Shown here: one piece after another, positions 49,624-63,800 of the stretch
Position numbering within the stretch: the first letter of the stretch is position 1
How the letters are laid out: each line of letters opens with the position of its first letter
Assembly (NCBI GenBank): GCA_963833135.1
Contig: CAWHWW010000010.1
Coordinates: 16,822 to 80,821, forward strand
Source of the DNA: an uncultured cyanobacterium
GTDB taxonomy: Bacteria; Acidobacteriota; Vicinamibacteria; Vicinamibacterales; UBA2999
Direction of reading: 5' to 3'
Length of the DNA: 64,000 bases
Position numbers and translations under genes: made by a program
Notes under the pieces: model-generated
What the model was told of the DNA's origin: nothing
The model's input: only the letters and a program-made list of their open reading frames with translations
Database searches by the model: none

Positions 49624-51061
49624 TCACATTGTCTTGAGGAACTCGAGCAGCGCCTCGCGATCCGCCACGGACAATTGGTGACCGTAGGTGTGCCCACCGT
49701 TGCCATTGCCGCGATCGGACGTCTTGAAAAGGACGCCTTGTTTCTCGGCCTCTGGTCCGGACGAGACGAAACCCACGCCCTGGAAGTCGTAGACGTCGTA
49801 GGCGCGATAGAACGCCGCCGGCCGCGGGTCGAGCAGCAGGAGCGCGCGAAGCGTCGGCACCGAACCGTTGTGCAGATACGGTGCCCGCAGCCAGATGCCG
49901 TCGAGCGGCATGCCGGCGTAGCCGTTCGTCTTGCGGAAGTGCGAAAACCTCCAGGGCTTGCCCGTGCCGATGGTGTTCATCATCTTCGCCAGTTCCGGCG
50001 TAAAGGAATTCAGTCGCTCCGGATCGGTCCCGATCTCGGCGATGTCGATCGTCTGTCCCACCTTCGGCTGGCCGACGTCGTGACAGCTTGCACAGTGCTG
50101 CTGATAGAGCGGCCGTCCCGTGCTCGCCAGGGCGGCATTGATGCGGTTGGAAGGATACGAAGGCGGCTTCAGATCGAGAATCCAGTTGGCAATCCGATCG
50201 AGCGCCGCCAGGTCGATGGAGTGCTCCGTCGCGCCGGCGCCTATCGCCGCACTCTTGTTCCGCTCGTCGACCGAATCGTTGTTGCCATCCCAGTGCAGCC
50301 ATAATCCCTGGCGAATCCGCTGATTCCAGAGGGACGGCAGATCGGCGGTGCCGACGCTCGTATCGGAGGCGAAATTCGTCTCGGCCGAGAACATCTCCTT
50401 GTACGGATTGAACGTATCCACACGCCCCGGTCCCTGGGGCGGCCGCTTGTCGAACCAGGCGATGCGCGGGTCACGCTCACGAATGCCCTTCTGCGTGGCG
50501 TTAATCGCGAACAACCGGTAGGTGAGGCCATCGAGGAATCCGAACTCCGGATGCTTCTGCATGGCGGCGACGAGGGTATCGGCGTTGAACCTGGGATCGC
50601 TGGCACAGGCTGACAGGAACCGCGCATAGGCCTGGAGATCCATCTGGTGCGCGGGCATCCCGAGAACGATCTTCGGCGCGGCTCCCGGCGCCTCGCGATA
50701 CTGCGCCGACATGACAGGTCGCGCAGTTCAGTCCCACGCGCGGAACCCAGTCGTTGCTCTTGGACGCGCCCATCGGCAGGTCGCCCTTGGGATTGTCGTA
50801 GGTGAATCCGATGCGCTCGTAGCCGTTCCCAGGGCGATTGGGCAGCTTGTCGGCGAACACTTCGGGCAGCACTTTCCACAGCCAGTAGGGCACCCCGACG
50901 GTTCCCTCGGTCCCGATTGATCCGTACTTGAACTCGGTGGCGATGTCCGGAGTGGACTGGGCTGCCAGGCCAATCCATGCGCAGATCACAATCGCGAAGA
51001 CAATCTTGGTCACGATCCGCGGCGATCCACCGACGCGCGCGCCGTTCTCAACTCGTCTCAT
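49624..51061 (-). CDS. di-haem c-type cytochrome, cytochrome-c-peroxidase/MauG-superfamily-like, one frameshift near 50700
   Basis: Signal or anchor KIVFAIVICAWIGLAA. Two CXXCH sites: GLNCATCHVG (ORF 50501..51061) and QQHCASCHDVG. WLRAPYLHNGSVPTLRALL resembles the CCP-family motif. Confidence 0.6.
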
Positions 51062-51074
51062 CGCGTACTACTCC

Positions 51075-52337
51075 TTACGTTCGAGCGACCGCGGTTGCGA
51101 AGGCGTACGTGATGGCCTCGTTGGTCACGTCGCTATGGTCCTTGATGAGGCCGCCCGAGCCGTCAAGGTTGTTGATGACCTGGCCCTTGAAGTCGTACGG
51201 CGTTCCCGCGGCATTCAGCCGCGAGCTGGCAACTTCCGTCGTCCGCAGCGCTCCATTGCGGCCCAACCCGCCGAATTCGTCGCTTGCGTCGCCGATCGCC
51301 CTCGTGTTGTCGCCGGCGAGACGCGACATGACCGAGTAGGCCTTCCCGACGACGGTGTCCTGGGCGGAGAAGGTCGACAGGAACGGGCCCTTGACGACCT
51401 TTTGAACGATCACGTCGCGGAAAAATCCGGCGCTGCCGTGCCCGTTGTCCGAACTGAAGCCAAAGTGCGAGAACGCCGCCTCGAGCAACATCAGGGAATC
51501 AAGGGGAGTCTTCGGTGCTTCGGCGAGCGCCTTGGCGCACGCCGCCGCCAGGCGGCCGCCCAGGCTGTGTCCCACGACGTGGAGGCGAAGACTCGGCGAG
51601 CTGGCGCGCAGTGTTCGCACCGCTTTGGCGAGGCCCGTGGCGCCTACCGTTCCCGATCGCTCCTTCATCACGTACCACGTCGTCAGGTTCAGGAATTGTC
51701 CGACGCCGCCGGCGATCCTGCCGGCAACGTCGCCGATCCCGCGGGTGCCATCAGCAGGCGGACTCAATCGCGCAAGAATCTCGGAACCTGATCGCTGGCG
51801 GATCCGCGTCAGTCCCTCCGTCGCATCCGCGCCGGAAGCGTCGACCAACGACAACACCAGCTCGACGAATTCGTCTTGCGCTTGCGGATTCGTCTCGAGC
51901 GTGGGCAGAAGTGCGATCGCTTTATCCAGGTTACGGCGCTGCGCGGGCGTCGCGTTGTCGTCCTTGAACTCCTCGAGCTGCGCCTTCGCGTCGGCCAGCG
52001 TGGGCGAAGGATCGTGCAGTCCGCGTGTGCGGCCCGATCCCTCGTCGAAGTCCTCTCGAAACTGCTTCGACGGCCAGTAGACGCCGGCGAAGACAAACTG
52101 CCGGTTGGCCAGCGCGCTGAATTCCGGACGTGAGAGGTTCGCCCTGAATGTCTGCAAGAAACGCGTGTAGAGGTTCGTCGCGTCGTTCTCGTCGTTGCGA
52201 AAGCCGTGCGCGATGAAGACCACATCGGTGGCGGAACTCGCGCGCGCGGCCAGCGCCTCGAATTCCTGCCGCGACTGCAACGTTCCGTGATCATCAAATT
52301 TCAGTGGGAAGAAATCGAATCCGTCGATGGTCGGCAT
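51075..52337 (-). CDS. alpha/beta-hydrolase, DUF900/lipase-like serine esterase
   Basis: VVFIAHGFRNDENDA ... VFAGVYWPSK, and nucleophile elbow LHVVGHSLGGRLAA. Intact 420-aa ORF, 14 nt upstream of the di-haem cytochrome gene. Confidence 0.6.
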   Translation of the reverse strand: MPTIDGFDFFPLKFDDHGTLQSRQEFEALAARASSATDVVFIAHGFRNDENDATNLYTRFLQTFRANLSRPEFSALANRQFVFAGVYWPSKQFREDFDEGSGRTRGLHDPSPTLADAKAQLEEFKDDNATPAQRRNLDKAIALLPTLETNPQAQDEFVELVLSLVDASGADATEGLTRIRQRSGSEILARLSPPADGTRGIGDVAGRIAGGVGQFLNLTTWYVMKERSGTVGATGLAKAVRTLRASSPSLRLHVVGHSLGGRLAAACAKALAEAPKTPLDSLMLLEAAFSHFGFSSDNGHGSAGFFRDVIVQKVVKGPFLSTFSAQDTVVGKAYSVMSRLAGDNTRAIGDASDEFGGLGRNGALRTTEVASSRLNAAGTPYDFKGQVINNLDGSGGLIKDHSDVTNEAITYAFATAVART

Positions 52338-52500
52338 ACGTTCCTCGCTCGCGCCTGCACCAGCTCATCCGGAACGCGACGGCGCAACCGCCATCCTAAC
52401 CGGACTCCGCAACCGTGTCTGCACTGTGATTGAATGGGCCGGGCAGCATCATGCTGAGGTGGCTGGGCCCGCGCCATGAGCGGCCTGACAAGGAGAGGGC

Positions 52501-53469
52501 ATGACCTTCAAGACACCGGCGCTGGCCGAAGAGGCTATCGACCCGGACGAGGCGGCGGTCGCGACGGCGTTCGTCGAGTTTCTCAAGGCGACAAGCACGA
52601 AGCATCACCCCACCGGTACGGTCCCGCGATTCAACCAGGGCCGCGCTGCCGGGTGTGTCGAGGCGGAGTTCATCGTGCCTGACGGCTTGCCGCAGGATCT
52701 TCGTGTCGGCCTCTTCGCTCACCCTCGCACCTACAAGGCGCGCATTCGATTCGCGCACGCCTCATCGGAGTCGGACACGGAGCGCGACGTTCGCGGCATG
52801 TCGATCAAGGTTGCAGGCGTGGGTGGCGAGAATCTGACCCCGGGTGTGGCGGACCACGACTTCATCCTGAACAGTCACCCGGTGATGATGGTGGGGCACA
52901 CCAAGGCCTTTCTCGACTTGCTCAAGGCGGTGGAGGAGGGCGGTGCCGCGCAAGGACTGTTCTTCGTCACACATCCGCGCGCCGCGGCCGTGGCGCTGGC
53001 CTCGCGGCAGCATGCCACCAGTCACCTCGAGATTCCCTACTGGAGCACGACGCCCTACCTCTTCGGGCCGGGCCGGGCGGTCAAATACAGCGTGCGTCCC
53101 GCTTCGCCTCGAAAGACGCCGCTGCCGGACCCGTTGACCGACAACTACTTGCGGGAGCGCCTGGTCGCCCATCTTGCGCGGGAAGAAGCTCGTTTCGAGT
53201 TTCTCGTGCAGTTTCAGACCGACGGCCGGAAGATGCCGATCGAAGACGCGAGCGTGGAATGGAAGGAGGACGACTCCGCGTTCCGCGCGGTCGCCGAAAT
53301 TCGCATCCCCGTCCAAACGCTCGAAGGTCCGAGCGCCGCGTCCTGCGAGCAGCTTTCGTTCAATCCCTGGCACGCCCCGGCGGATCACCGCCCGCTCGGC
53401 GACTTCAACCGCGCGCGCCGTGAGATCTATCGCGCGATGGCGGCTTTTCGTGGGACGCCACGGGCCTGA
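52501..53469 (+). CDS. small catalase-fold haem protein (mini-catalase, y4iL/srpA/AOS-like clade; not a canonical catalase)
   Basis: AAGGAGAGGG RBS. RDVRGMSIKV (cf. catalase D.RGFA.KF). DHDFILNSHPVMMV (cf. D.vgNN.PVFF). Proximal-Tyr-like NRARREIYRAMAAFR. The catalase VHAKG position reads FNQGR by eye. Intact 322 aa. Confidence 0.6.
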   Translation: MTFKTPALAEEAIDPDEAAVATAFVEFLKATSTKHHPTGTVPRFNQGRAAGCVEAEFIVPDGLPQDLRVGLFAHPRTYKARIRFAHASSESDTERDVRGMSIKVAGVGGENLTPGVADHDFILNSHPVMMVGHTKAFLDLLKAVEEGGAAQGLFFVTHPRAAAVALASRQHATSHLEIPYWSTTPYLFGPGRAVKYSVRPASPRKTPLPDPLTDNYLRERLVAHLAREEARFEFLVQFQTDGRKMPIEDASVEWKEDDSAFRAVAEIRIPVQTLEGPSAASCEQLSFNPWHAPADHRPLGDFNRARREIYRAMAAFRGTPRA

Positions 53470-53493
53470 GTCCAAGGAGATCGAATCACTCCC

Positions 53494-54462
53494 ATGAGAA
53501 AAGCACTGATCGTCGGCATCAACTACTACTCACAGATTCCCCGGCTGTATGGCTGCGTGAACGACGCCCATGCGGTGAAAAAAACCCTGGAGCGGAACGG
53601 TGACGGCACGATCAACTTCACCGCCAACCTCTTCACGGCCGACAGCGACGCCGACGCCATCAGCCGCAGCACTCTGAAGCGCCTCGTTCGCGAGCTCTTT
53701 GCCGAAGATCACGAGGTGGCATTGTTGTACTTCGCCGGTCACGGGCACGTGGAGCAAACCGGCGGTTATCTGTGCAGCAGCGATTCCAGTGAGGGAGACG
53801 ACCTCTCGCTCGCCGACGTGATGACGTTTGCCAATGACTCGCCGGCCAAGAACAAGGTGATATTTCTCGACAGCTGCCATTCCGGAATCGCCGGCACGCC
53901 GGCCGGTCAAAAGGCAGCCGAAGTGGCCGAGGGTGTGACCATCCTGACGGCGTCGACCAAGGAACAGTACGCGACCGAGAAGAATGGCAGCGGCGTCTTC
54001 ACGTCGCTACTCGTGGATGCCTTGAACGGCGGAGCATGCGACCTGGTCGGCACAGTTACGCCGGGCGCCGTGTATGCGCACATCGATCAGTCGCTCGGTC
54101 CGTGGGAGCAGCGGCCGGTGTTCAAGACGAATGTGAAGGAGTTCGTTTCGCTGAGGCGCGTGCCCGCGCCCATTCCACTGGAATATCTGCTTCGGCTCAC
54201 CGAGTTCTTCCCGAAGCCGGGGATGAAGTTCGATCTCGATCCGAGTTTTGAGCCCGAGCCGAACGGAAGGCCGCCCGGCGTCGCTCCTCCGGACCCTGAA
54301 AACACCGCGAAGTTCGACGTGCTTCGACAGTTCAACCGCGTCAACCTCCTCGTGCCCGTTGGCGCGCCCCACATGTGGCATGCGGCCATGGAATCAAAGA
54401 GCTGCAAGCTGACGGCGCTCGGCGAGCATTACCGTCGCCTGGTTGAACGGAATCGGATTTGA
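53494..54462 (+). CDS. caspase-fold (peptidase C14) protease with unrecognised ~150-aa C-terminal domain
   Basis: [12 protein letters not shown]...LYGCVNDA. His in LLYFAGHGH. Cys in [13 protein letters not shown]. Intact 322 aa, 25 nt after the mini-catalase stop. Confidence 0.8.
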
Positions 54463-54475
54463 CAGAGCATAAGGA

Positions 54476-54545
54476 GGGCTTGCGGGCTTGCGGGCTACGG
54501 GCTTGCGCGCTGCGGGCTACGGGCTTGCGGGTCACGGGCTTGGGG
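54476..54545. repeat. One-armed tandem array of GGGCTTGC/GGGCTAC words: nine G3+ tracts spaced 3-11 nt (mostly 4-5) on the + (sense) strand
   Basis: Read directly: GGGCTTGCGGGCTTGCGGGCTACGGGCTTGCGCGCTGCGGGCTACGGGCTTGCGGGTCACGGGCTTGGGG. It is preceded by AAGGAGG (54471-54477) and is in frame with the downstream ORF (table ORF 54488..55069). Confidence 0.8.
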
Positions 54546-54562
54546 TCGCCGGAGACCGCGCG

Positions 54563-55069
54563 ATGACACGCATCGGGATTACCGGACATCAACGGTTGGA
54601 CGATGAGACGACATGGCAATGGGTGAGCATCGCCTTGGCTGACGCCGTATCACGGTCACCTCGTCCTTTCGCAGGCCTGAGCTCGCTCGCGATTGGCGCC
54701 GATCAGCTTTTTGCGTCGATCGTGCTCGATCAAGACGGTGCGCTCGAGGTCGTCGTGCCGTTTCCTGACTACCGGAGCCGTTTCGCCGACGAGCAGGATG
54801 CGAAGCGCTACGACGCCTTGTTGTCGCGCGCGTCACGTGTCGAAGTCCTGCCGGCACAAGCGTCCGACGAGAAGGCCTACCTGGCGGCCGGAAAACGAAT
54901 CGTCGATCGCAGCAACGAAATGTTTGCGGTGTGGAATGGTCAGCCAGCCGCCGACGTCGGCGGAACCGGCGATATCGTGCAGTACGCGCGAGAGCGTCGG
55001 ACGCCTCTTGACCGTGTTCAATCCCGTGACCCGGACGGTGCTCCTCCCGGACCGCCGGTTGGCGAATGA
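54563..55069 (+). CDS. stand-alone SLOG/YpsA-like Rossmann-fold protein (putative nucleotide-derivative binding)
   Basis: MTRIGITGHQRL, LSSLAIGADQLFASIVL, EVVVPFPDYRSRF, MFAVWNGQPAADVGGTGDIVQYARERRTPL. This pattern matches my memory of YpsA/DprA-type SLOG motifs (G.TG..., G.A.G.D, vwdG...GGT..v.yA). Alternative TTG start at 54488 inside the repeat. Confidence 0.45.
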   Translation: MTRIGITGHQRLDDETTWQWVSIALADAVSRSPRPFAGLSSLAIGADQLFASIVLDQDGALEVVVPFPDYRSRFADEQDAKRYDALLSRASRVEVLPAQASDEKAYLAAGKRIVDRSNEMFAVWNGQPAADVGGTGDIVQYARERRTPLDRVQSRDPDGAPPGPPVGE

Positions 55070-55091
55070 TTCTCTCTGAGAGAAACCTGTC

Positions 55092-56505
55092 ATGCCTGAA
55101 CTGAGGAAAGTCTTCATCAGCCACTCTCACAAGGACGAACCACTGGCCTCGGCGTTCCGTGACACGCTGAAAAACATCTTCAACAACGTCGACGTCGCTT
55201 TTTCGTCTGACAAGACCGTTGGAGGAGGACCCTCGTCCGGGTCGAACTGGCTCGAGTGGATACACACTCGCATGCGCGACTGTCAGGAGTCACTGCTGTT
55301 GCTGACGCCGTATTCGATACGGCAGCCCTGGCCGATGTGGGAGGCGGGCGCCGTCGGCGGGATGGCGATCATCAATCCGGATCCGGCTGCCGCCCCGTTG
55401 AAGGTGGTGACGCCGATTCGCTTCAACATCGCGCAGGAAGCGCTGCCCGGCCCTTTCGTCGTCACGCAGGCAATCGACGGGCGGGATCCGGAATCGCTCC
55501 GAAAGCTGCTCGGCGATCTGATGAAGCGCTATGACTACGCGGGAACGCCGCAGGCGACCTATAGAGCCGTGCTGAACGATCAGATTCCTTCACTGGCCCA
55601 GACGATCAAAGGCTGGCTCGAAAACTCTCCGCCCATGGTGACCGAGGGGATGGTGATGGAGTGGTGCAGCCGGCTCGATGAACTGCGCGACCAGCGGCGC
55701 AGCTCGGAGGTCCGCTACCTGCACCACTGGATCCGCCTGATGTACGAGGGCCCGCAACAGGAGGAAGCGGACCGGCAGACCTGGAGCCAGACGCCGCGCC
55801 GGGAAACGTGGGACCTGCGCCTGCATTTGCGGCTGGCGCAGAACTACACGATCGCGCAACAGTACAAGGAAGCCATCGAGCAGTATTTGCTCGCGGCGCA
55901 ACTCGCGCCACTCGACGCGTTCGTCCTGCACCGTCTCGCCCAGGTCTATCTCGACGTCGCGGATGCGGACGCTTCGCGGCGGACGATCGATCAAGATCCT
56001 GAACCTCGACAAGGACGCCTTGAAATGGAATGCCGAGATCGCCGGCCTCGAGGGCCGTTATTGGAAGGACCAGGGCCGGAGGCATCAGGCCGAGAGCAAG
56101 CCCCAACAAGCGCAGGAGTCGTTCAGGAAATCGCTGCAGGCGTACGAGGCGGCAATGAACATCGACGGAGTCAAAGTTGATTTCTACATGGCCGACAACG
56201 TCGGGCAGTTGAGCCTGACGCTCGGCGACATCCCGGCTGCCAAGAGAGCCTACGAGCGCGCGCGCGTCGCTCTCGAGAATGTGACCCGCGAGACTGAGAG
56301 CGTGTGGAGCCTTGCGACGCGTGCGACCGCCGCACTGGTGCTGGAGGTTGATGACAAAGAGGCGCTCGACTACCTTGCCCGCATTCGGGAGTTCGAGCCG
56401 ACCGATTCCCAGAAGGCCAGCATCTCCCGGGGGCTGCAGCTGATCAAAAAGGCGCTCGACAAGACGGACGCCGACTATCGGCGCTGGGTCGGTCTGCTCG
56501 GATAG
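55092..56505 (+). CDS. TIR-domain protein fused to a TPR/DUF4071-like helical repeat module, one frameshift near 55985
   Basis: TIR: RKVFISHSHKDEPLASAFRDTL...SLLLLTPYSIRQPWPMWEAGA. Repeats: LRLAQNYTIAQQYKEAIEQYLLAAQLAP, VLHRLAQVYLDV, AEIAGLEGRYWKDQG (resembles the DUF4071 GR.YKD signature), SFRKSLQAYEAAM. Confidence 0.7.
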
Positions 56506-56506
56506 A

Positions 56507-56536
56507 CGGCGCCCGCTACCGTGCGGGCTCCTGCCG
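56507..56536. terminator. Short GC hairpin between convergent operons (GCCCGC-TACCGT-GCGGGC)
   Basis: Read directly at 56511-56528, with flanking CGGC/GCCG extension. It sits in the 33-nt spacer between stops 56505 (+) and 56539 (-). No clear U-tract. Confidence 0.35.
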
Positions 56537-56538
56537 AT

Positions 56539-57608
56539 TCAGTCGCGCTCGCGGGGCATGATCTTGGCTTTCTTTTTTCTGGCCTGCCGCGCGGCGCGGC
56601 GAACCGGTTTCCGGACGGCCCGCGCGCGTGTCGAGGGAGGCGCGATCGTTCGCAGCCGCGGCGCCACACGGGCGGTGGTATCGGCCGCCGGATCCAATAC
56701 GTAGCGGGGCAGGATCCCCTGGGTATAGAGCAACCCGTAGACCAGCGCCTGATTGGTCTTGTGGCCCGGCTTGAACACGTTGTTCTCGAGCCACTCCTTC
56801 GCGTGTGCGAGGCCCCGTCCGAGATCGATGTCGACATCGGCCGAGTGCACCATCGACGCGGGGTCCCCGCCAGGCAACGGCATTGCGTCCTTGGAGAACG
56901 ACAGTTGAACGTTTCCTTCGGCGAACCGCGTGTGCTTCCAGCTGTCGGGATGCGCGGGCAGATCGGCCAGGTCACCGCCGGGGGCGCCATGTCCCGGCGC
57001 GCCGGCAAACTCGCTTGCGCGCGGCATCCGCGCCTTGAGCGCGGCGTATCGAAAAACACGAACGCCCGATCGACGGCGACGTGACGCACGCCGCGCACGA
57101 ATCCGAGGAGCGGGGCCCCATCGAGAACGGTTTCGCGCAGCTTGGCCTCGATGTTCAGAAAGGCCATCTTGGCGGCCGACGTCCAGCGCACGAAAGGCCG
57201 CAGCGTCGATGCCGCTTTTTGGCGCCACAAACGGCGACGCGATCTGCTGCGAGACGATCGAAGCCGTTCGGGAGATCGGTCGTTCCGGGTGCATCGGGCA
57301 CCAGCATCAGCCGCAATACCAGGTCGTCGCCTTCGACGTTCTCCGGAACCCGAATGAAGTCCCGGCGCCGGATCAGTTGCCACGCCGGCCGATGTTGAGG
57401 CGCCGAAAACGTGATGCCGTACACCTGTCCGGCATCGAAGGGCAGCGCGAGCCGGAGCTCGAGCGTCGATTCGTCGGTCTTTCCCTGGAAGAGGAGACGC
57501 GGACCGCCGGAGGCGAAGACGTCGGAGACGCGGATGCTCAGCGGCACCGCCGCGCCAGAGATTTCGATCGCAGCCGTAGAGGATGACGGTCAGCCGTTTC
57601 TCGGTCAC
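56539..57608 (-). CDS. unrecognised protein, last gene of the gasdermin operon, basic C-terminal tail, at least 3 frameshifts
   Basis: GTG 57608 lies 5 nt after GGAGG, which follows the gasdermin TAA. Pieces: PLSIRVSDVFASGGPRLLFQGKTDESTLELRLALPFDAGQVYGITFSAP; AAKMAFLNIEAKLRETVLDGAPLLGFVRGVRHVAVDRAFVFFDT; HSADVDIDLGRGLAHAKEWLENNVFKPGHKTNQALVYGLLYTQGILPRYVLDP; tail RKPVRRAARQARKKKAKI. Confidence 0.5.
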
Positions 57609-57618
57609 CGTCGCCTCC

Positions 57619-58428
57619 TTACTGCGCCACGCGCACGAAGGCGCCGCGAGTCTCGAGAAAGACCGGGCGGCGGGCGGCCCCGCCGGCCGGAGGAAAGGCC
57701 CGCGCCGCCGCTTCTCCGGCGCCCAGTTGCTGCGTCGTCAGGAACTGACCGGATTCGTCGAACACGAGTTGCACGGCCTGAAACGCGAACGCCACCGGTA
57801 CGGCGCCCTCGAAGGCGATTTTCGATTCCATTCCGCTGGCCGTGCCGACGTTGACGCTGCCGCCGACGGCTTGCTGAATGACCGGCACGTCGACCTTGAC
57901 CGTGGCGCCGTTCTCGCCCTGCGCCGCGACGACGATCTTCTTGGTCTTCAAGACCGACGTCACGACATAGACCTCGTCATCGAGCAGCTTCTCCAGCGTG
58001 CCGGCCGGAATGTGCGGGCTGATCCGTCCCGCCTTGACGAATTTTTCGACCGCAAGGACATCGACGACGTCCTCCATCACCGCGGCGTATTGGAAGGTCA
58101 CGGTGCGCGCCTTGTTGAAGGCGACGTCGAGACCAAGCTTGCCGCCGCCGAGCGCCGAGATGAACGCACCGAGGATACTCAACCCGATCGCGACGTTGAC
58201 CTTGCTGGTTTCCTTCCCCTCGATGTCGATGCCCGGATTTCCGTCCCGCCGCACATCAGGTGCGGCGATCTCGCCGGCGTCGACGAGATCCGGCACCATG
58301 CCGAGACGCGTCAGATCCTTCCCGTCACGGTGCATCAGCTCGAGCGGTTGCGCCGATGCGCGCGGAAAACGAAACACACTGAACCCGAAGCTGCGCAGGA
58401 ACGTGATTGACTGATCAGGTCTCGACAT
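57619..58428 (-). CDS. bacterial gasdermin (bGSDM) homolog
   Basis: Intact 269-aa ORF from ATG 58428. FLRSFGFSVFRFPRASAQPLELMHRDGKDLTRLG, VAIGLSILGAFISALGGGKLGLDVAF, VPVIQQAVGGSVNVG, IAFEGAVPVAFAFQAVQLVFDESGQF match the bGSDM consensus as I remember it (GLSILG..I.A.GG.KLGLD; VP.IQ..VGG.V.V; EG.VP..F.FQAV.L). Followed by a ~35-aa tail. It lies 8 nt downstream of a caspase-like gene. Confidence 0.75.
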   Translation of the reverse strand: MSRPDQSITFLRSFGFSVFRFPRASAQPLELMHRDGKDLTRLGMVPDLVDAGEIAAPDVRRDGNPGIDIEGKETSKVNVAIGLSILGAFISALGGGKLGLDVAFNKARTVTFQYAAVMEDVVDVLAVEKFVKAGRISPHIPAGTLEKLLDDEVYVVTSVLKTKKIVVAAQGENGATVKVDVPVIQQAVGGSVNVGTASGMESKIAFEGAVPVAFAFQAVQLVFDESGQFLTTQQLGAGEAAARAFPPAGGAARRPVFLETRGAFVRVAQ

Positions 58429-58436
58429 GTGACACC

Positions 58437-59279
58437 TCAGGCGGAAAACAGCGGCGTTTCGAACCGGGCGGTCCGGCCTTCGAGCTGCGGCACCTGCTCG
58501 AACTTCCTGGTCTTGAGTACGACAGCAGCGCGATCGTGCAGCTGTTTGTAGGTGAGCGCGGCCTTGCCCTTGCGCATGGCCTCGACGAGCGCGAAGGTGA
58601 GCGCGCCGTTGTAGCGGCCGTTGATGAAGGCGTCGGCCGAGGTCTGCGTGTCGCGGCACCCGGTGATGAGCACTTCGGGAAGGTCCGCCTTCACGATGTC
58701 CTTGGTCTTGCGGGCCGCCCGCGAGCGAGCGCCGGAGCTCGCTCGTGACCTTTCTCGGCAGACTCCGTCCGGATTCCACCGCTTTCAGGCTCGCAGGGAC
58801 TCGGGAGGTAGCGTTGCCTGACGGGCGCGTCGGGCGGCAGGAAGGCGCGCGTGTTGGTGCCCGAATGGCAGCAGTCCATGATGACCGTGAGGTTGACGCC
58901 GTCTTTCATCCCGTCGAACGTGGTGCGCAGCCAGTCGTCGCGGAGCGGATCGTCCCAGTCAAGATCGGTCGGGCAGAGGATCTCGTCGCGGCCGTCGGCC
59001 TCGTCGCTGTTGTCGTCGGGCACGTTCGAACCGTGGCCGGAGTAATGAAGGACGGCGACATCGCCCTTCTTCGAGTCGCGCAGCAAGCGCCTTGATTCCG
59101 GCCTCTATCGCCTTCTTCGTTGCCTCGAAGTCGGTGAGCACGGCGATGTCGCTCTTCTTGAAGCCGTAACACTCGACGAGCGCGGAGCTCAGGTCCTCCA
59201 CGTCGTTGACGCACCCCCGGAGATCGGCGCCGTCTATCCGGTATTTGTTGATTCCAATCAGCAACGCTCGCTTAGCCAT
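58437..59279 (-). CDS. caspase-fold (peptidase C14) protease, 2 frameshifts
   Basis: MAKRALLIGINKYRIDGADLRGCVNDV. His in VAVLHYSGHGS. Cys in LTVIMDCCHSGT. C-terminus VLITGCRDTQTSADAFINGRYNGALTFALVEAM. Pieces lie in ORFs 58959.., 58691.., 58437... Confidence 0.8.
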
Positions 59280-61182
59280 TCACACCCTCCCACTCCAACG
59301 GAATGCCGTAACCAGCTGGTCATCGGCGACGGAATCTGATTTGCGCCGGATCGGTCAGCAGGGCGCCCACGCCCTTCGTCGTCACCGTCGAACGGATCAA
59401 GCTCGCTGAGTGAACCGAACGAAAGCCCGGCGCGCTCTTCGATGGTTGCGATCCGTGTCTGCGAGGTCTTGTGCTTCCCGAAGACGAACTCCTCGTCGCG
59501 CAGAAAATCTTCCTGCGACATCGTGTAGCCGGTCGCACACAGCTCCCTGGTCTCGTCGTGGATGAAGGCGATGACTTTCCAGAACGAGCGTGGAATCAGG
59601 ACGCCGTCACGGATCGGATCGTCGGGCATCAGGAACGGTCCCGTCATGACGGAGATGCGCATGTCATCGGACCGCGCGTTGTCGAGCGCGTAGCTCTCGA
59701 GCGCGAGCCAGATGCCGCCGTTGAACGGCTGCATCTGGGGCACGGTGTTCGTCACGTGCATCGAGTCGCTGTTGCCGAGCGCCGCCTCGTCGGGATCGCC
59801 CCAGACCGGGTCTTCGCGACGCGTCATGTGGCCGCGCGAGAACTTCGGCTCGCTCCCATAGCACTCGTCCTTGATTTGCTGCCTGACGGGAATGCGAGGA
59901 TCGAGGCGCCACGAAGGACGCTTGAACCGGCGAGGCGTTGCGCCGTCGATGTTGCCGGCAGCTGAAGATACACAGACGCCGGCTGCGGCTCATCACCACC
60001 GAGAAGTGCTGATACTTGAGCTCCGATTCCTGAGCACCATTCCAGGGGAATGTGAGGACGTCGGCCGCATTGTTCACCAGCGGGCAGTGGCACATCCACT
60101 CCGACAAACCGCGGGTCATACCCCTTGCGCCCGATGTAATCCTCGGGCACGCCTTCGACGAACACCTCGTAACCGGCAGGCGTCCCGGCGTCCGGTGTCG
60201 GCGTGACGATGGCGTGAGGAGTGACGGGACCCTGGGGCGGGCGGCTCGAGGGCTTTCCGGGCTTCGGATGTCGCACTTGTTCGAGGCGCTCCGCAACGAC
60301 CGTCATCGGTACGGCGTAGTTGGTTTCGAGAAAGCGGCCCGCGAAGTGCAATCCGACGGCGTGCCCGGTCCCCAGATCGAGCACGACCGAACCCGAGTTC
60401 CCTCCAAGCGTCGAACAGTCGTGGAGCAGGACATCCGTTTTCGCCTCCGTCACTTGACCCGGAGCCAGGCGCTTCTTGTCGAACACGTCGCCGAAGATCG
60501 ACTGCACCAACTGCTCGTCGGGCGCTCGGCTGTCCCTGGCGGGATATCCGATCACGGCCACCTGCTGCGCGGCGTGAGGCGGTGACACCGAGAGCGGGAT
60601 CGGAGGCGCGAGCGCCTGACCGCGCGATTCGCCCACGCGCAGGAGCGCGAAGTCCGGGCCATCGTCGTCTTCGATGTGCAGGATCTCGACGATCGGGAAC
60701 GAGAGGCGTTCCGGCCGGCCCACTTCTTCGAGGAAGTCGATGGACACGCCGGATGGTGATCCGTCTTCCTTCTTGAACATGAAACGATCGCGCCCTCGTT
60801 GCCCGAACTCACGCGCCACGTGACGATTCGTCACGATGGTGTCCTTCTCCACGAGCCAGCCCGTGCCGACGTACGGCACGCCCGGACGACCGGTGACGTT
60901 GATGCGTCCGACGGCACCCGCCGCGCGCTGCAGCTGCGCGCTCGAGGCCTGAAGACGGGTGCGCCAGACCTCGCTTTCGCTTTCCCTGAATTCCAGTTGT
61001 GCCGCGCCGCCGACGACCGCCAGAACCGGCCGTCCCACGCGAAGCACGATATTTCGAAGGCTCTGACCCGCATCGCGAAGCGAGCGGGTACCGCTGATCT
61101 GTCGGAGTTCGTCGGCGAGCAGCCGATCAGCCGTGTCGAGGGTCGAGATGAGTTGCTTCAGCCATTCGTCGAGGTCTCCCAT
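59258..61182 (-). CDS. fusion protein: N-terminal helical region + trypsin-like serine protease + DNA/RNA non-specific (NucA/EndoG, beta-beta-alpha-Me) endonuclease; at least 2 frameshifts
   Basis: Protease triad: TIVTNRHVAREF (H), GPDFALLRV (D), CSTLGGNSGSVVLD (S). Nuclease: KYQHFSVVMSRSRRLCIFS, hand-read AAGNIDGATPRRFKRPSWRLDPRI...EPKFSRGHMTRREDPVWG, NTVPQMQPFNGGIWLALESYAL. The stop is uncertain (59258 or ~59320). Confidence 0.75.
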
Positions 61183-61202
61183 CGCAGCCTTGCCAGAAGC
61201 GC

Positions 61203-62526
61203 CTATTGAAAGGTCTGCGGACGATAGACGGACAGAATCTGCTCGATCATCGCTTCACGCGACGGGTAGCGGCTTTCGTCGTAGCAGCCGAGCGGGTTCT
61301 CCGGTGCATTCACCAGGCAGCGGTTGCAGTACGTGCACGGGTTCTCCGGCCGGCCGATCCCGTTCGCGAACTGCTGCACGAGATCGTTGTTGGCGATCAG
61401 CGGCCGCGCAATGGTCACCGCGTCGCAGTCGCCACGAGCGATGGCGTCTTCGATGATCGCGGCCGTCTGGAATCCGCCGGTGCACAGCACCGGAATGCTG
61501 CCCACCGCCTGCTTGATCGCGCGGGCATCGTGGAGATTGAGTCCTTCAATCTTGTCCTTCGGACCGCGCGCGTTTTCCCATCGTTTCCTGAACAGTTCCC
61601 CGGTGATCCGCCCGCTGAACAAGATGTAGTTTCTGAGCGCCAGCACGCCGCTCGAGATCAGGCTGTCGTACGTCTTTCGCAGCTCGTCCACCGGCAGATC
61701 GCCGGCCGGATTCTTCGGGTGTGGAAACGAGCTGCCCGGACGACACGTGGATGGCGTCCACGCCGTCTTCCTTCAGCCACTGACAGACCTGGACGGAATC
61801 CTCCACGGTGTTGCCGGGCTTCTCGTCCGACAGCATCGCGTCGTTGAATTCCGTCGCGCTGATCTTCATCTGCAGGTGGAAGTCCCGCCCCACGCGCGCG
61901 CGGATTGCCTGGACGATCTCGCGCACGAACCGTGCGCGGTTGGCGAGCACGCCGCCGTATTCGTCGGTGCGATCGTTGATTGCGGAGCTGAGAAACTGCG
62001 TGATCAAGTAGCCGTTCGCGCCGTGCAGCTCCACGCCGTCGAGGCCCGCCTCGCGCGCGCGTCGTGCACCCTCGGCGAAGGATTGGATCGCTTCCTTGAT
62101 CTCGGCGAGCGTCATCGCTTCGCATTCGAAGCCATGTAGCGGATCACGTTTCCCCGTCGAGCTGAGACCCTTCGGATAGTCGAAGGTCGCGATGTCGCGT
62201 TGCCGGCCGCCATGGCTGAGTTGGAGGATGTACTTGCAGTCGTGTTCGTGCACGGCGTTGCCCAGCGCACGCCAGAACGGAATGCGATCGTCGCTCACGA
62301 TCGTCGCGTAATTCGGCAGGATGCGCCCGCGCTGATGCACCGGCACGAACGACGACACGATGGCGCCGACGCCTCCGCGCGCGAACTTGACTTCCCAGTT
62401 GATGCGCGCCTGCGCGCCAGTGCCATCGTAGTTGTCGAAGCGGCCCGCGATGTTCGATCGCAGAATGCGATTCTTCACCGTCAGATTGCGGAAGCTCAGG
62501 GGCGAAAAAATGCGTTCGTATGGCAT
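61203..62526 (-). CDS. Old Yellow Enzyme-family NAD(P)H:flavin oxidoreductase, frameshifted
   Basis: ATG 62526. MPYERIFSPLSFRNLTVKNRILRSNI, ILQLSHGGRQ, GLDGVELHGANGYLITQFLSSAINDRTDEYGG, DAVTIARPLIANNDLV. C-terminal piece in ORF 61203..61691. Its stop is only 20 nt upstream of the protease-nuclease start. Confidence 0.85.
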
Positions 62527-62636
62527 GGCGGCGCGAATTATATGCGCAAAAGGCGGGTGCACGAATTTCGATCTGTGGCATAGTCTGCGATTCTGCACGC
62601 TGATCATCGAGCACGTGGTTCTGCTGCGAGGGATGA

Positions 62637-63800
62637 ATGACGGACAAGCACCTGAAGGGACCGTGGTACAGGCAGCCGAAGTTGACCGCGATGCCGCAAC
62701 TCGTCGAAATTCGCAACCAGCTCAGGCGTGAGAATCTGCACGATACGGAAGAATCGCCACTTGAAAAGCGAGTTGATACTGCTGAGCCGGATGCCGCGCT
62801 GCGGGAAGAGCGCACCGTCGATGGCTCGTACAACGATCTCGAGCTCCACGCCAAGGCGAAGCTCATCAACTCAGCGCTCATGGCCAAGATCCATACCGTC
62901 GAGTGGACTCCGGCCATCCTGCCGCACCCGGTCACCCAGCTCGCAATGCACGCAAATTGGTACGGCCTGGCGGGCGACGAGCTGCAGGAAGTCCTGAAGT
63001 TTCTAAACGACAACGAGATTCTCGGAGGCATCGTCGGGTCGAAATACGATCACCACACGGCTCCCTACGCGTTCACCGAAGAGTTCGTATCCGTGTACCG
63101 GATGCACCCGCTCATTCCCGACGACGTGGCCATCAGGTCGTTGGACAACGATGCCGTCGCGGAAACGATCGAGCTGCCCGAGCTGTCCGGCCGTAAGGCT
63201 CCCGGCGTCGTGAACCGGATAGGCATGTCCGATTTGTTCTACTCGTTCGGACGGTGTCACCCCGGCGCCATCACCCTGCACAACTACCCGAAGCATCTGC
63301 AGAATCTCAGTCGCGACAACGGTGAACATCTCGACCTCGCCGCCGTAGACATCTTCAGAGATCGGGAACGTGGCGTGCCCCGGTACAACCAGTTCCGCCG
63401 GCTCTTTCACAAGGACCCGGTGAAGTCGTTCGAGGAGCTGACGGACAACCCGGTGTGGCGCGAAGAAATTCGACGCGTCTACGGAAACGATGTGGAGAAG
63501 GTCGACTTGATGACCGGGCTCTATGCCGAACCGCTGCCGCCCGGATTCGGTTTTAGCGATACGGCGTTCCGCGTCTTCGTCCTCATGGCGTCACGACGCC
63601 TGAAGAGCGACCGCTTCTTTACGAACGATTATCGCGCCGAGGTATATACCGAATTCGGACTGAACTACCTGAAGGACAACTCAATGTTAACGGTCTTGAA
63701 GCGACACCATCCGGATTTGGCGCCTGCCCTCCGGGGTGTCGACAATGCCTTCAAGCCATGGCGTAAGGTCGAAGCAGGGGGTGCACATGTCGCGTCGTAA
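62637..63800 (+). CDS. alpha-dioxygenase/COX-type (animal haem peroxidase superfamily) fatty-acid haem dioxygenase homolog, apparently lacking ~230 aa of the N-terminal catalytic half
   Basis: LINSALMAKIHTVEWTPAIL, HHTAPYAFTEEFVSVYRMHPLIPD (cf. plant alpha-DOX PYSLTEEFVSVYRMH.LLP with catalytic Tyr and proximal His), AAVDIFRDRERGVPRYNQFRR, LMASRRLKSDRFFT. The N-terminal LRRENLHDT...RTVDGSYNDLE joins directly to LHAKAKLIN. Confidence 0.7.
   Translation: MTDKHLKGPWYRQPKLTAMPQLVEIRNQLRRENLHDTEESPLEKRVDTAEPDAALREERTVDGSYNDLELHAKAKLINSALMAKIHTVEWTPAILPHPVTQLAMHANWYGLAGDELQEVLKFLNDNEILGGIVGSKYDHHTAPYAFTEEFVSVYRMHPLIPDDVAIRSLDNDAVAETIELPELSGRKAPGVVNRIGMSDLFYSFGRCHPGAITLHNYPKHLQNLSRDNGEHLDLAAVDIFRDRERGVPRYNQFRRLFHKDPVKSFEELTDNPVWREEIRRVYGNDVEKVDLMTGLYAEPLPPGFGFSDTAFRVFVLMASRRLKSDRFFTNDYRAEVYTEFGLNYLKDNSMLTVLKRHHPDLAPALRGVDNAFKPWRKVEAGGAHVAS

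Follow-up and report, generated by a model that had tools for sequence, protein, structure and literature searches.

A trypsin-like protease fused to an Endonuclease_NS nuclease, encoded directly upstream of a caspase-like gene and a gasdermin gene in Acidobacteriota

The stretch of DNA analysed here (the window) is 64,000 nucleotides of contig CAWHWW010000010.1 (assembly GCA_963833135.1, positions 16,822 to 80,821 of the forward strand), deposited as an uncultured cyanobacterium and placed by GTDB in the Acidobacteriota (Vicinamibacteria, Vicinamibacterales, UBA2999). Its minus strand carries a gene for a trypsin-like protease joined in one chain to a nuclease of the Endonuclease_NS family (hereafter the fusion), followed by genes for a Peptidase_C14 caspase-like protein (C14), a bacterial gasdermin and a protein that we call u345. 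These four genes form a tight array on one strand with gaps of about 40, 8 and 10 bp. An earlier note, made from the letters alone, had proposed that the protease and the nuclease are one polypeptide after frame correction, with a complete protease triad and nuclease site, and that this polypeptide is encoded directly upstream of a caspase-like gene and a gasdermin. Both proposals were borne out, the former by the reconstructed open reading frame (ORF), Pfam and the alignment of homologs, and the latter by the co-directional array.

When three extra bases are deleted, the fusion becomes a single ORF of 619 aa on the minus strand (61182-59323, stop codon 59322-59320). The uncorrected sequence is divided into three overlapping ORFs. 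The first (452 aa, 61182-59824) contains the protease motifs TNRHV, DFALLRV and GGNSGS, the middle frame carries LVNNAADVLTFPWNGAQESELKYQHFSVVMSRSRRLCIF, and a 189-aa ORF (59827-59258) carries (FS)RGHMTRRED and NTVPQMQPFNGGIWLALE. The last 16 residues of the fusion, VGALLTDPAQIRFRRR, lie in a further frame and are followed by the stop. Every frame change is a +1 shift caused by a single extra base, there is no in-frame stop at any of the three junctions, and the corrected protein aligns from the first to the last residue, without gaps at the junctions, with 22 and then 111 continuous homologs. All five motifs quoted in the earlier note (TNRHV, DFALLRV, GGNSGS, FSRGHMTRRED and NTVPQMQPFNGGIWLALE) were found on the minus strand, and the case that it named as refuting, a stop codon that separates two genes, does not occur. 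On the other hand, it implied one or two frame changes where there are three, and overlooked the third. The 3' end of the gene is thus 59320 instead of 59258, and 59258-59319 consists of the intergenic gap and the first codons of the caspase gene (ATG at 59279).

The three frame breaks in the fusion appear to be assembly errors, not stops, because a near-identical contig (L001; ENA ERZ25039555 contig_56003, 97.5% identical to the window over 6.3 kb) lacks them, the homologs are continuous and the neighbouring genes are likewise broken. L001 has none of the three extra bases and has a different one of its own inside the protease domain. Relative to an intact syntenic reference locus (L021, from the Logan assembly of run DRR654877), frame changes were found in the Old Yellow Enzyme (OYE) gene (1), the fusion (3), the caspase gene (3), u345 (at least 2), the TIR-TPR gene (1) and the gene for a 171-aa protein (1). 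The need for frame correction therefore reflects noise in the assembly and is no trait of this gene, as most genes in this region are affected, and any ORF-based reading of the window requires such correction. Comparison of the corrected fusion with L021 gave a ratio of nonsynonymous to synonymous substitution rates (dN/dS) of 0.23 for the whole gene and 0.19 for its nuclease part, which lies downstream of the shifts; these values show purifying selection. Programmed frameshifting was also considered and rejected, because there are three shifts within 1.9 kb, all of them single-base insertions without a slippery sequence; moreover, the shifts are not present in the near-identical contig and similar indels occur throughout the region.

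The domain assignment of the corrected protein is clear. Two Pfam domains score above their gathering thresholds. Residues 106-278 match Trypsin_2 (PF13365, MEROPS clan PA; E 2.7e-17, score 64.3 bits, cutoff 27.6), with a weaker Trypsin match besides, and residues 381-590 match Endonuclease_NS (PF01223; E 2.1e-40, score 139.2 bits, cutoff 23) over positions 13-218 of the 223 in the model. H121, D177, S263, R449, G450, H451, N478, Q482, N487 and E495 are invariant in 112 aligned sequences. The nuclease site (SRGH451, N478, N487 and E495) aligns with ARGH / TN..PQ..N..W..LE of Anabaena NucA (1ZM8, 2O3B), and this segment was also aligned with the active-site motifs of Serratia nuclease (1G8T, 1QL0). 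Judging from these alignments, the nuclease active site is complete and Mg2+-dependent cleavage of DNA and RNA is predicted.

Structural information came from an AlphaFold2 model of the ortholog P0005, which is 85% identical to the window protein (mean predicted local distance difference test, pLDDT, 71.5). The model consists of helices at residues 2-28 (low confidence), disorder at 29-50, a strand and a helical hairpin at 54-90 (the hairpin itself at 68-90) packed on the protease, a two-barrel protease at 91-305, a disordered Pro-rich linker at 307-340 and a nuclease domain at 345-623. In Foldseek, its nearest matches were staphylococcal Esp/V8/Spl and HtrA proteases (E 1e-11 to 1e-10; target template modelling score 0.64-0.78 among the top 20). 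The top 50 matches of the full-length model were all to the protease, with none to the N-terminal segment or the nuclease. We take the protease motif HDCSTLGGNSGS to resemble that of V8 protease. The RGH loop (444-457) and the TN..PQ..N finger (474-490) of the model have a pLDDT below 50, and the rest of the nuclease domain is confident. These low-confidence segments of the active site may be a modelling artefact, as neither metal nor dimer was included, or may mark a non-canonical resting conformation.

The regions outside the two catalytic domains differ in how far they are conserved. The N-terminal region of about 100 residues, described earlier as helical, does contain helices, but it is not one domain, since the model divides it into helices, disorder and a strand with a hairpin. 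The two-helix segment at residues 1-28 is specific to the clade, while the pre-protease segment (LRNIVLRVGRPVLAVV ... EVWR.RL ... AVGRI) is kept family-wide, with conservation from about residue 41 onward, and residues 37-301 match a protease-containing model in the PADLOC library of defence systems. Residues 1-106 gave no Pfam match at E<=1, and no extra N-terminal domain was found in nine distant homologs. The N-terminus is thus a short clade-specific helical segment followed by a family-wide protease extension, with no recognisable CARD, Death or EAD domain. The Pro-rich linker varies in length and sequence in the family alignment. The C-terminal tail of about 30 residues is conserved to its last residues in clade A (at least 65% identity to the window protein) and clade B, and could be a candidate regulatory or inhibitory element. 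Neither a signal peptide nor a transmembrane segment was found in the fusion. As its N-terminus is acidic and no segment exceeds 1.42 on the Kyte-Doolittle scale, the protein is predicted to be cytoplasmic.

The fusion is widespread. Both domains are present in 117 of the 120 best-scoring homologs listed, all but a handful of which are near full length (mostly about 620 aa), and the domain order is identical in all fusion homologs examined. At least 575 metagenome stretches encode a relative. Genomes with the fusion belong to Acidobacteriota (including the clade of the window), Bacteroidota and Actinomycetota, and the names found include Pontibacter, Nibrella, Chitinophagaceae, Arthrobacter and a Bradyrhizobium metagenome-assembled genome (MAG).

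To see which genes accompany the fusion, neighbourhoods were compared in 103 loci. Within clade A, a C14 caspase-like gene lies directly downstream of the fusion in every locus with at least 300 bp of downstream sequence (23/23). A gasdermin gene comes next in 12 of the 18 loci that extend far enough (11 loci and the window), and in the remaining six, which lack gasdermin, u345 directly follows C14. Intact cassettes are found in L021, L022 and L023. The fusion had been regarded as an accessory of a gasdermin operon; these counts do not agree with that view, as its constant partner is the caspase. The fusion-C14 pair is a stable unit and gasdermin is optional. A protein of 1236-1464 aa with DUF7379, CHAT and TPR-S domains often ends the clade-A cassettes (L017:15202-19134, L022:12291-16001, L023:12030-16424, L002:13863-18257) and is absent from the variant in the window, likewise from L001 and L021. 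With a third, caspase-fold protease and a 'sensor' TPR, this protein is the best sensor candidate of the ancestral cassette. The host is one Vicinamibacterales-like clade of Acidobacteriota in which the fusion is fixed beside C14. The cassette stands at a fixed chromosomal site after the OYE gene and near an animal-haem-peroxidase gene, so the association appears to be vertically inherited in this lineage, with varying cargo after the caspase.

None of the fusion loci below 65% identity has a caspase. Their neighbours are an EAD1-trypsin paralog with a STAND NTPase (L006, L015, L054 and others, in relatives 45-55% identical), a calcineurin-like metallophosphoesterase of about 410 aa (L007, L008, L010-L012, L063, L066-L068), TIR (L003, L042), an S8 subtilase (L019) and TPR-S-trypsin (L020, L024), all of which are typical partners in conflict systems. 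In relatives of Bryobacterales/Solibacteraceae type the metallophosphoesterase always comes directly after the fusion, and this class has recently been listed among protease-associated effectors. In L008 the pair lies a few kb upstream of an SMC gene (confirmed by Pfam), and L007 and L010 have a similar ORF of about 1300 aa there.

Table 1. Features of the fusion and the adjoining genes (coordinates in the window).
Feature	Position	Strand	Remarks
Fusion coding sequence, trypsin-like protease / Endonuclease_NS	59320..61182	-	ATG 61182-61180; gap-free full-length alignment with homologs
N-terminal ~100 residues	60883..61182	-	acidic two-helix segment 1-28, variable disorder 29-50, conserved pre-protease segment
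Trypsin_2 domain (chymotrypsin-fold, V8/HtrA-like)	60349..60867	-	H121 60822-60820, D177 60654-60652, S263 60396-60394
Pro-rich interdomain linker, residues ~307-340	60163..60264	-	pLDDT <50 in model; 9 Pro of 34
Endonuclease_NS domain, ββα-Me	59411..60041	-	RGH451 59830-59828, N478, N487 59722-59720, E495 59698-59696
C-terminal tail, ~30 residues past the Pfam domain	59323..59410	-	LDPFDGD(D/E)EG ... LTDP.QIRF, acidic patch
Extra base 1	60081	-	G, CCC[G]CTGG; first frame change; not in L001; homologs read PLPLVNN through
Extra base 2	59962	-	G, TTCA[G]CTGCC; second frame change; not in L001; homolog alignment
Extra base 3	59371	-	C, GAAGGG[C]GTGGGC; third frame change; not in L001; homolog alignment
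Peptidase_C14 caspase-like gene	58437..59279	-	~279 aa; His motif HYSGHG, Cys motif DCCHSG; ortholog Pfam E 2.8e-33
Bacterial gasdermin gene	57619..58428	-	269 aa, unbroken; 89.5% identical to L021 ortholog over 267 aa, one frame
u345, fourth gene of the array	56539..57608	-	L021:11581-12618; heavily frame-broken in window
OYE-type Oxidored_FMN gene	61203..62526	-	ends 20 bp upstream of fusion ATG; one frame break near 61734

Among the other members of the array, the C14 gene of the window has its frame interrupted by extra bases at 59088, ~58794 and ~58723. Both long-read contigs (the window and L001) share the positions of the last two breaks, with differing local sequence, whereas three intact orthologs, presumed to be short-read assemblies, lack them. 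We read these shared breaks as context-specific basecalling error. The L021 ortholog of the gasdermin is recognised by PADLOC (bGSDM, 1.3e-67) and NCBIfam (prok_gasdermin, score 183.6 bits, cutoff 100). The gasdermin has a conserved C-terminal peptide, PVFLE.RGAFVRV, after a variable loop, which in sequence is compatible with an inhibitory segment removed by a protease. The fourth gene, u345, has no match in Pfam, PADLOC or NCBIfam. Its AlphaFold2 model (pLDDT 66.7) gave only a weak Foldseek match, to a transthyretin-like fold in the first ~110 residues. In the model, a beta-sandwich of transthyretin type at the N-terminus is followed by a C-terminal domain in which His, Asp and Glu residues are invariant (HPDSWKH, HSADVDIDLGRG). 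At least 427 homologs were detected, with no known domain in the family, and a few are fused to VanY/Peptidase_M15_4 domains of cell-wall peptidases, which hints at a further effector, possibly one acting on the envelope.

On the upstream side, almost every clade-A locus has the OYE gene as the neighbour of the fusion (81-92% identity). This flanking gene, which probably has a housekeeping role, could be co-transcribed with the fusion or mark a fixed insertion site. The fusion had been called the first cell-death gene of the operon. It is indeed the first conflict-type gene of the array, but with the OYE gene 20 bp upstream the transcript does not demonstrably start at the fusion. A scan of 56300-62800 gave no promoter-like site and fewer terminator-like sites than expected from shuffled sequence.

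The surroundings of the array contain further genes. On the plus strand, a second array of conflict type (52501-56505) runs towards the gasdermin operon. Its first gene encodes a 322-aa protein, and after it come an intact Peptidase_C14 gene (53494-54462), a gene whose 171-aa product matches YpsA/SLOG weakly and a TIR-TPR gene (55092-56505) with one frame break; these four genes stand in the same order in L021. The animal-haem-peroxidase gene (62637-63800, plus strand) encodes only 387 aa in the window, whereas its L021 ortholog has 590 aa, with no counterpart of ortholog residues ~72-266, owing either to a deletion or to assembly collapse. A DUF5995 gene lies between u345 and TIR-TPR in L001 (13984-14755) and L021 (12643-13377) and is missing from the window (~56515-56563), where about 770 bp is absent relative to L001.

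What, then, may the fusion do? We consider it probable (roughly 0.6) that it is a latent protein freed by proteolysis, acting alongside a gasdermin pore opened by the caspase, and that it represents a member of the NucA-trypsin family fixed in a C14 cassette. Most likely it would serve as a suicide nuclease of the cytoplasm that proteolysis sets free. If it is located there, a non-specific nuclease must presumably be latent, and three things point to proteolytic licensing: the protease in the same chain, the caspase as obligatory partner and the precedents in the literature. The full-length fusion would thus be a pro-nuclease. A signal of infection or stress, which in many relatives is possibly read by the CHAT-TPR-S protein, would activate the proteases. 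The C14 caspase, the fusion's own protease or both would process the fusion and free or unmask the nuclease, which would then degrade cellular and invader nucleic acid. In parallel, the caspase would remove the C-terminal inhibitory peptide of the gasdermin, leading to membrane pores. The cassette would accordingly have two lethal outputs, as a module of abortive infection or programmed death.

The division of labour between the two proteases can be narrowed to some degree. For opening the gasdermin, adjacency and precedent favour the C14 caspase. Since the fusion-caspase pair is kept in six cassettes without gasdermin, the caspase is suggested to have a substrate besides gasdermin, and the fusion is the obvious candidate. 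One may go further and regard the caspase and a protease-tethered, EndoG-like pro-nuclease as the core unit, a counterpart of caspase-activated DNA destruction to which gasdermin adds an optional second arm; we offer this only tentatively, as a possibility more doubtful than the reading above.

Several points weigh against proteolytic release of a latent nuclease. The variable linker provides no obvious specific cleavage site, and the window's own cassette has no recognisable sensor. A shared EAD-like adaptor was not found either: hidden Markov models (HMMs) were built for three parts of the fusion (N-terminus, pre-protease segment, C-terminal tail), and all scored about 0-2 bits against the other cassette proteins. 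As far as sequence tells, a homotypic link of EAD or CARD type was rejected on these HMM scores together with the lack of a Pfam match and of an extra domain. The cassette occupies a fixed, vertically inherited site and is not on an evident mobile element, and a phage-defence phenotype is not inferable from sequence. The shared caspase breaks may also reflect a real and recent inactivation of the caspase in this lineage. Moreover, the NucA-trypsin system is itself a predicted one. The sequences show that the gene is whole, which domains it encodes, that the catalytic residues are intact, that the order of genes is kept and that selection is purifying, whereas the latency, the direction of cleavage, the trigger and the role in defence are inferred. 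On the other hand, none of the four rival explanations that we weighed (independent systems, the nuclease as a sensor, a pseudogene and a secreted toxin) is favoured by the data.

One rival holds that the fusion is a self-contained effector, and that the caspase-gasdermin pair stands beside it by clustering in a defence island or by vertical synteny. The whole locus, including the OYE and peroxidase flanks, is syntenic in the clade, and co-occurrence could therefore be inherited; yet the genes share one strand with gaps of 8-40 bp, and the fusion-C14 pair is kept in the six gasdermin-less loci and also where u345 or CHAT come and go. PADLOC calls the caspase and bGSDM a system without the fusion, although a 279-aa C14 protein without a sensor domain would need an upstream activator or partner. 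More distant fusion homologs have entirely different neighbours or none, as this rival would predict. On balance we regard such independence as unlikely.

We give a similarly small chance to another arrangement of the same parts, in which the trypsin-like domain is the initiating protease that cuts C14 or gasdermin, and the nuclease domain serves mainly as a sensor of nucleic acid. It would supply the sensor for which the cassette in the window has no other candidate, and in many protease-effector modules the protease is fused to a sensor. However, the catalytic residues of the nuclease are invariant in the 112 sequences, which favours catalysis over binding. The inter-subunit linker of C14 is rich in Arg and Lys and contains RSLPRKVTSEIRRSSRAARKTK, as would suit cleavage by a trypsin-like enzyme, but V8/Esp-like proteases are Glu-specific. 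The HDCSTLGGNSGS motif and the fold matches of the fusion are V8/Esp-like, hence its specificity would be for Glu rather than Arg or Lys. The gene beside the fusion in relatives belongs to a class of protease-activated effectors (metallophosphoesterase, TIR), which suits an initiating protease, whereas the account of NucA in Kaur et al. (PMC7159879), in the passages on this system, treats it as a deployed effector.

A true pseudogene, with real frameshifts in a decaying defence island and with protease and nuclease parts that are no longer one protein, is very unlikely. It is true that three frame changes in the fusion and three in the caspase gene stand in the deposited sequence, and that the truncated 452-aa ORF is what public gene calls hold (P0107). 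The breaks are, however, unspecific. Over 12.8 kb (window 50034-62842), the window and L001 differ by 46 indels, 43 of them of 1-2 bp and affecting both contigs, and by 374 substitutions, a ratio that is not credible for coding DNA under selection. This amounts to about 3.6 indels per kb, nearly all of 1-2 bp, and the OYE gene of housekeeping type is included. Within the fusion gene each contig is intact where the other is broken, and every segment is open in its own frame, with dN/dS of about 0.2 downstream of the breaks. A further point in favour of decay is that two caspase breaks stand at identical positions in both near-identical contigs. Against it stands the origin of the sequences. The window and L001 come from ENA assemblies and have names of the form 'contig_N', and the names of related contigs mark them as long-read MAGs of Acidobacteriota from Microflora Danica ('MFD'). 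Among the orthologs that are intact, L025 and L026 are JGI metagenome contigs and L021 is a Logan assembly; these three we presume to be short-read assemblies.

The extra bases in the window are inserted G or C in 14 of 16 cases, several of them beside TCG/CTCG or GC contexts. The indel pattern looks like context-specific, possibly methylation-linked, basecalling error. In such long-read soil MAGs, gene calls split the protein into 'trypsin' and 'endonuclease' ORFs, hiding the architecture from surveys based on annotation.

Finally, a secreted or contact-dependent toxin or a digestive enzyme, of the kind known from Serratia nuclease, from Anabaena NucA or from polymorphic toxins that carry a releasing peptidase, is hardly credible here even though many Endonuclease_NS proteins are extracellular or toxin tips and Jablonska et al. 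(2017) read the Trypsin_2 coupling as virulence-related, because the fusion has no signal peptide, transmembrane segment, secretion domain or repeat domain, the genes downstream are the caspase and gasdermin instead of a small immunity-type gene, and the domains encoded beside it consistently belong to intracellular conflict systems.

Such a fusion is known from computational work, and by sequence the protein is a member of the predicted NucA-trypsin family. The earlier note knew of no protease-nuclease fusion in published gasdermin operons; the architecture itself is already present in Jablonska et al. (2017), who observed the coupling of Trypsin_2 to this nuclease group, and in Kaur et al. 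(2020; eLife 9:e52696, PMC7159879). In the passages of the latter on 'System 3', NucA (Endonuclease NS) is fused to or co-encoded with a trypsin-like peptidase, and a proteolytic cascade is proposed, as a prediction only, to deploy the nuclease. [quoted passage not shown] The passages on this system in the two papers do not mention a combination with caspase or gasdermin (the term 'gasdermin' was searched in the sequel only). A literature search, which for Johnson et al. covered the main text of the preprint, brought up no report of Endonuclease_NS or NucA in connection with a bacterial gasdermin. The element that looks unreported is thus the conserved acidobacterial cassette, which joins a NucA-trypsin core, a C14 caspase and usually a gasdermin.

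If the mechanism proposed above holds, the cassette would be the first testable example of the long-predicted NucA-trypsin system, and it would bring a second nuclease fold under the rule of protease-gated zymogen immune nucleases. It would also mean that gasdermin cassettes can carry a parallel arm that destroys nucleic acid under the same proteolytic control. Such a finding bears on the pre-eukaryotic origin of death programmes with multiple outputs (pore and DNA degradation). On the more tentative reading, with the caspase and the pro-nuclease as the core unit, one cassette, probably through one caspase, would trigger both apoptosis-like degradation of nucleic acid and pyroptosis-like pores, by means of domain families that are in use in animals too, and the nuclease would be the first of ββα-Me fold regulated as a zymogen by a protease in its own chain.

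Compared with System 3, our locus shares the combination of NucA with a trypsin-like peptidase within one chain and the predicted logic of proteolytic deployment, and the distant relatives L006, L015 and L054 carry the described EAD1-trypsin and STAND accessories. On the other hand, it belongs to an acidobacterial clade without EAD, STAND or transmembrane segments and with fixed C14 and gasdermin, u345 and DUF7379-CHAT-TPR-S. The EAD1/STAND-bDLD2 accessories are absent from the window and from all clade-A cassettes; they occur in only a subset of the systems of Kaur et al., so their absence does not exclude membership.

Caspase-like proteases cleave bacterial gasdermins, and the gasdermin systems described include C14, CHAT and other proteases, sometimes fused to TPR, LRR, WD40 or NACHT, with no nuclease mentioned (Johnson et al., 2022, Science; preprint 10.1101/2021.06.07.447441). 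Our array resembles these systems in that the gasdermin comes directly after a Peptidase_C14 gene (8 bp), in the short C-terminal peptide of the gasdermin and in the CHAT-TPR proteins of related cassettes. Unlike them, it begins with the gene for a second protease that bears a nuclease, and its dispensable member is the gasdermin.

Protease-activated pro-nucleases have been demonstrated experimentally in trypsin-MBL (metallo-β-lactamase) modules and in the caspase-nuclease system 'canu' (Tuck et al., 2025, Science, PMC12799240; Evans et al., 2025, PMC12642450). The likeness to the predicted action of the fusion is in concept only, namely a latent non-specific nuclease freed by a trypsin-like or caspase-family protease in abortive infection. 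There, the nuclease is of MBL fold with gating insertions and is encoded by a separate gene, and the protease is fused to a sensor; here, the nuclease is of ββα-Me fold, stands in the protease chain and has no identified gating insertion.

In the CARD-trypsin gasdermin system of type II, an endonuclease or a phospholipase can replace the gasdermin (Wein et al., 2023/2025, PMC10312443). This system and our array share a trypsin-like protease with a helical N-terminal extension in a gasdermin operon. However, our cassette has no NLR-like ATPase, and the N-terminus of the fusion, modelled with low to moderate confidence, is not predicted to be the six-helix bundle of a CARD. Moreover, the nuclease there is separate and replaces the gasdermin; in our cassette the two occur side by side, and the nuclease is part of the protease chain.

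In eukaryotic cell death, EndoG, HtrA2/Omi and caspase-activated DNase each form a protein of their own, and compartmentation or an inhibitor (ICAD) keeps them under control. The families concerned, Endonuclease_NS, chymotrypsin-fold protease, caspase and gasdermin, are found here in one cluster, for which we claim no orthology. The cassette would resemble eukaryotic death programmes in pairing DNA destruction in the style of apoptosis with the pore logic of pyroptosis, and would differ from them in that control here is by fusion.

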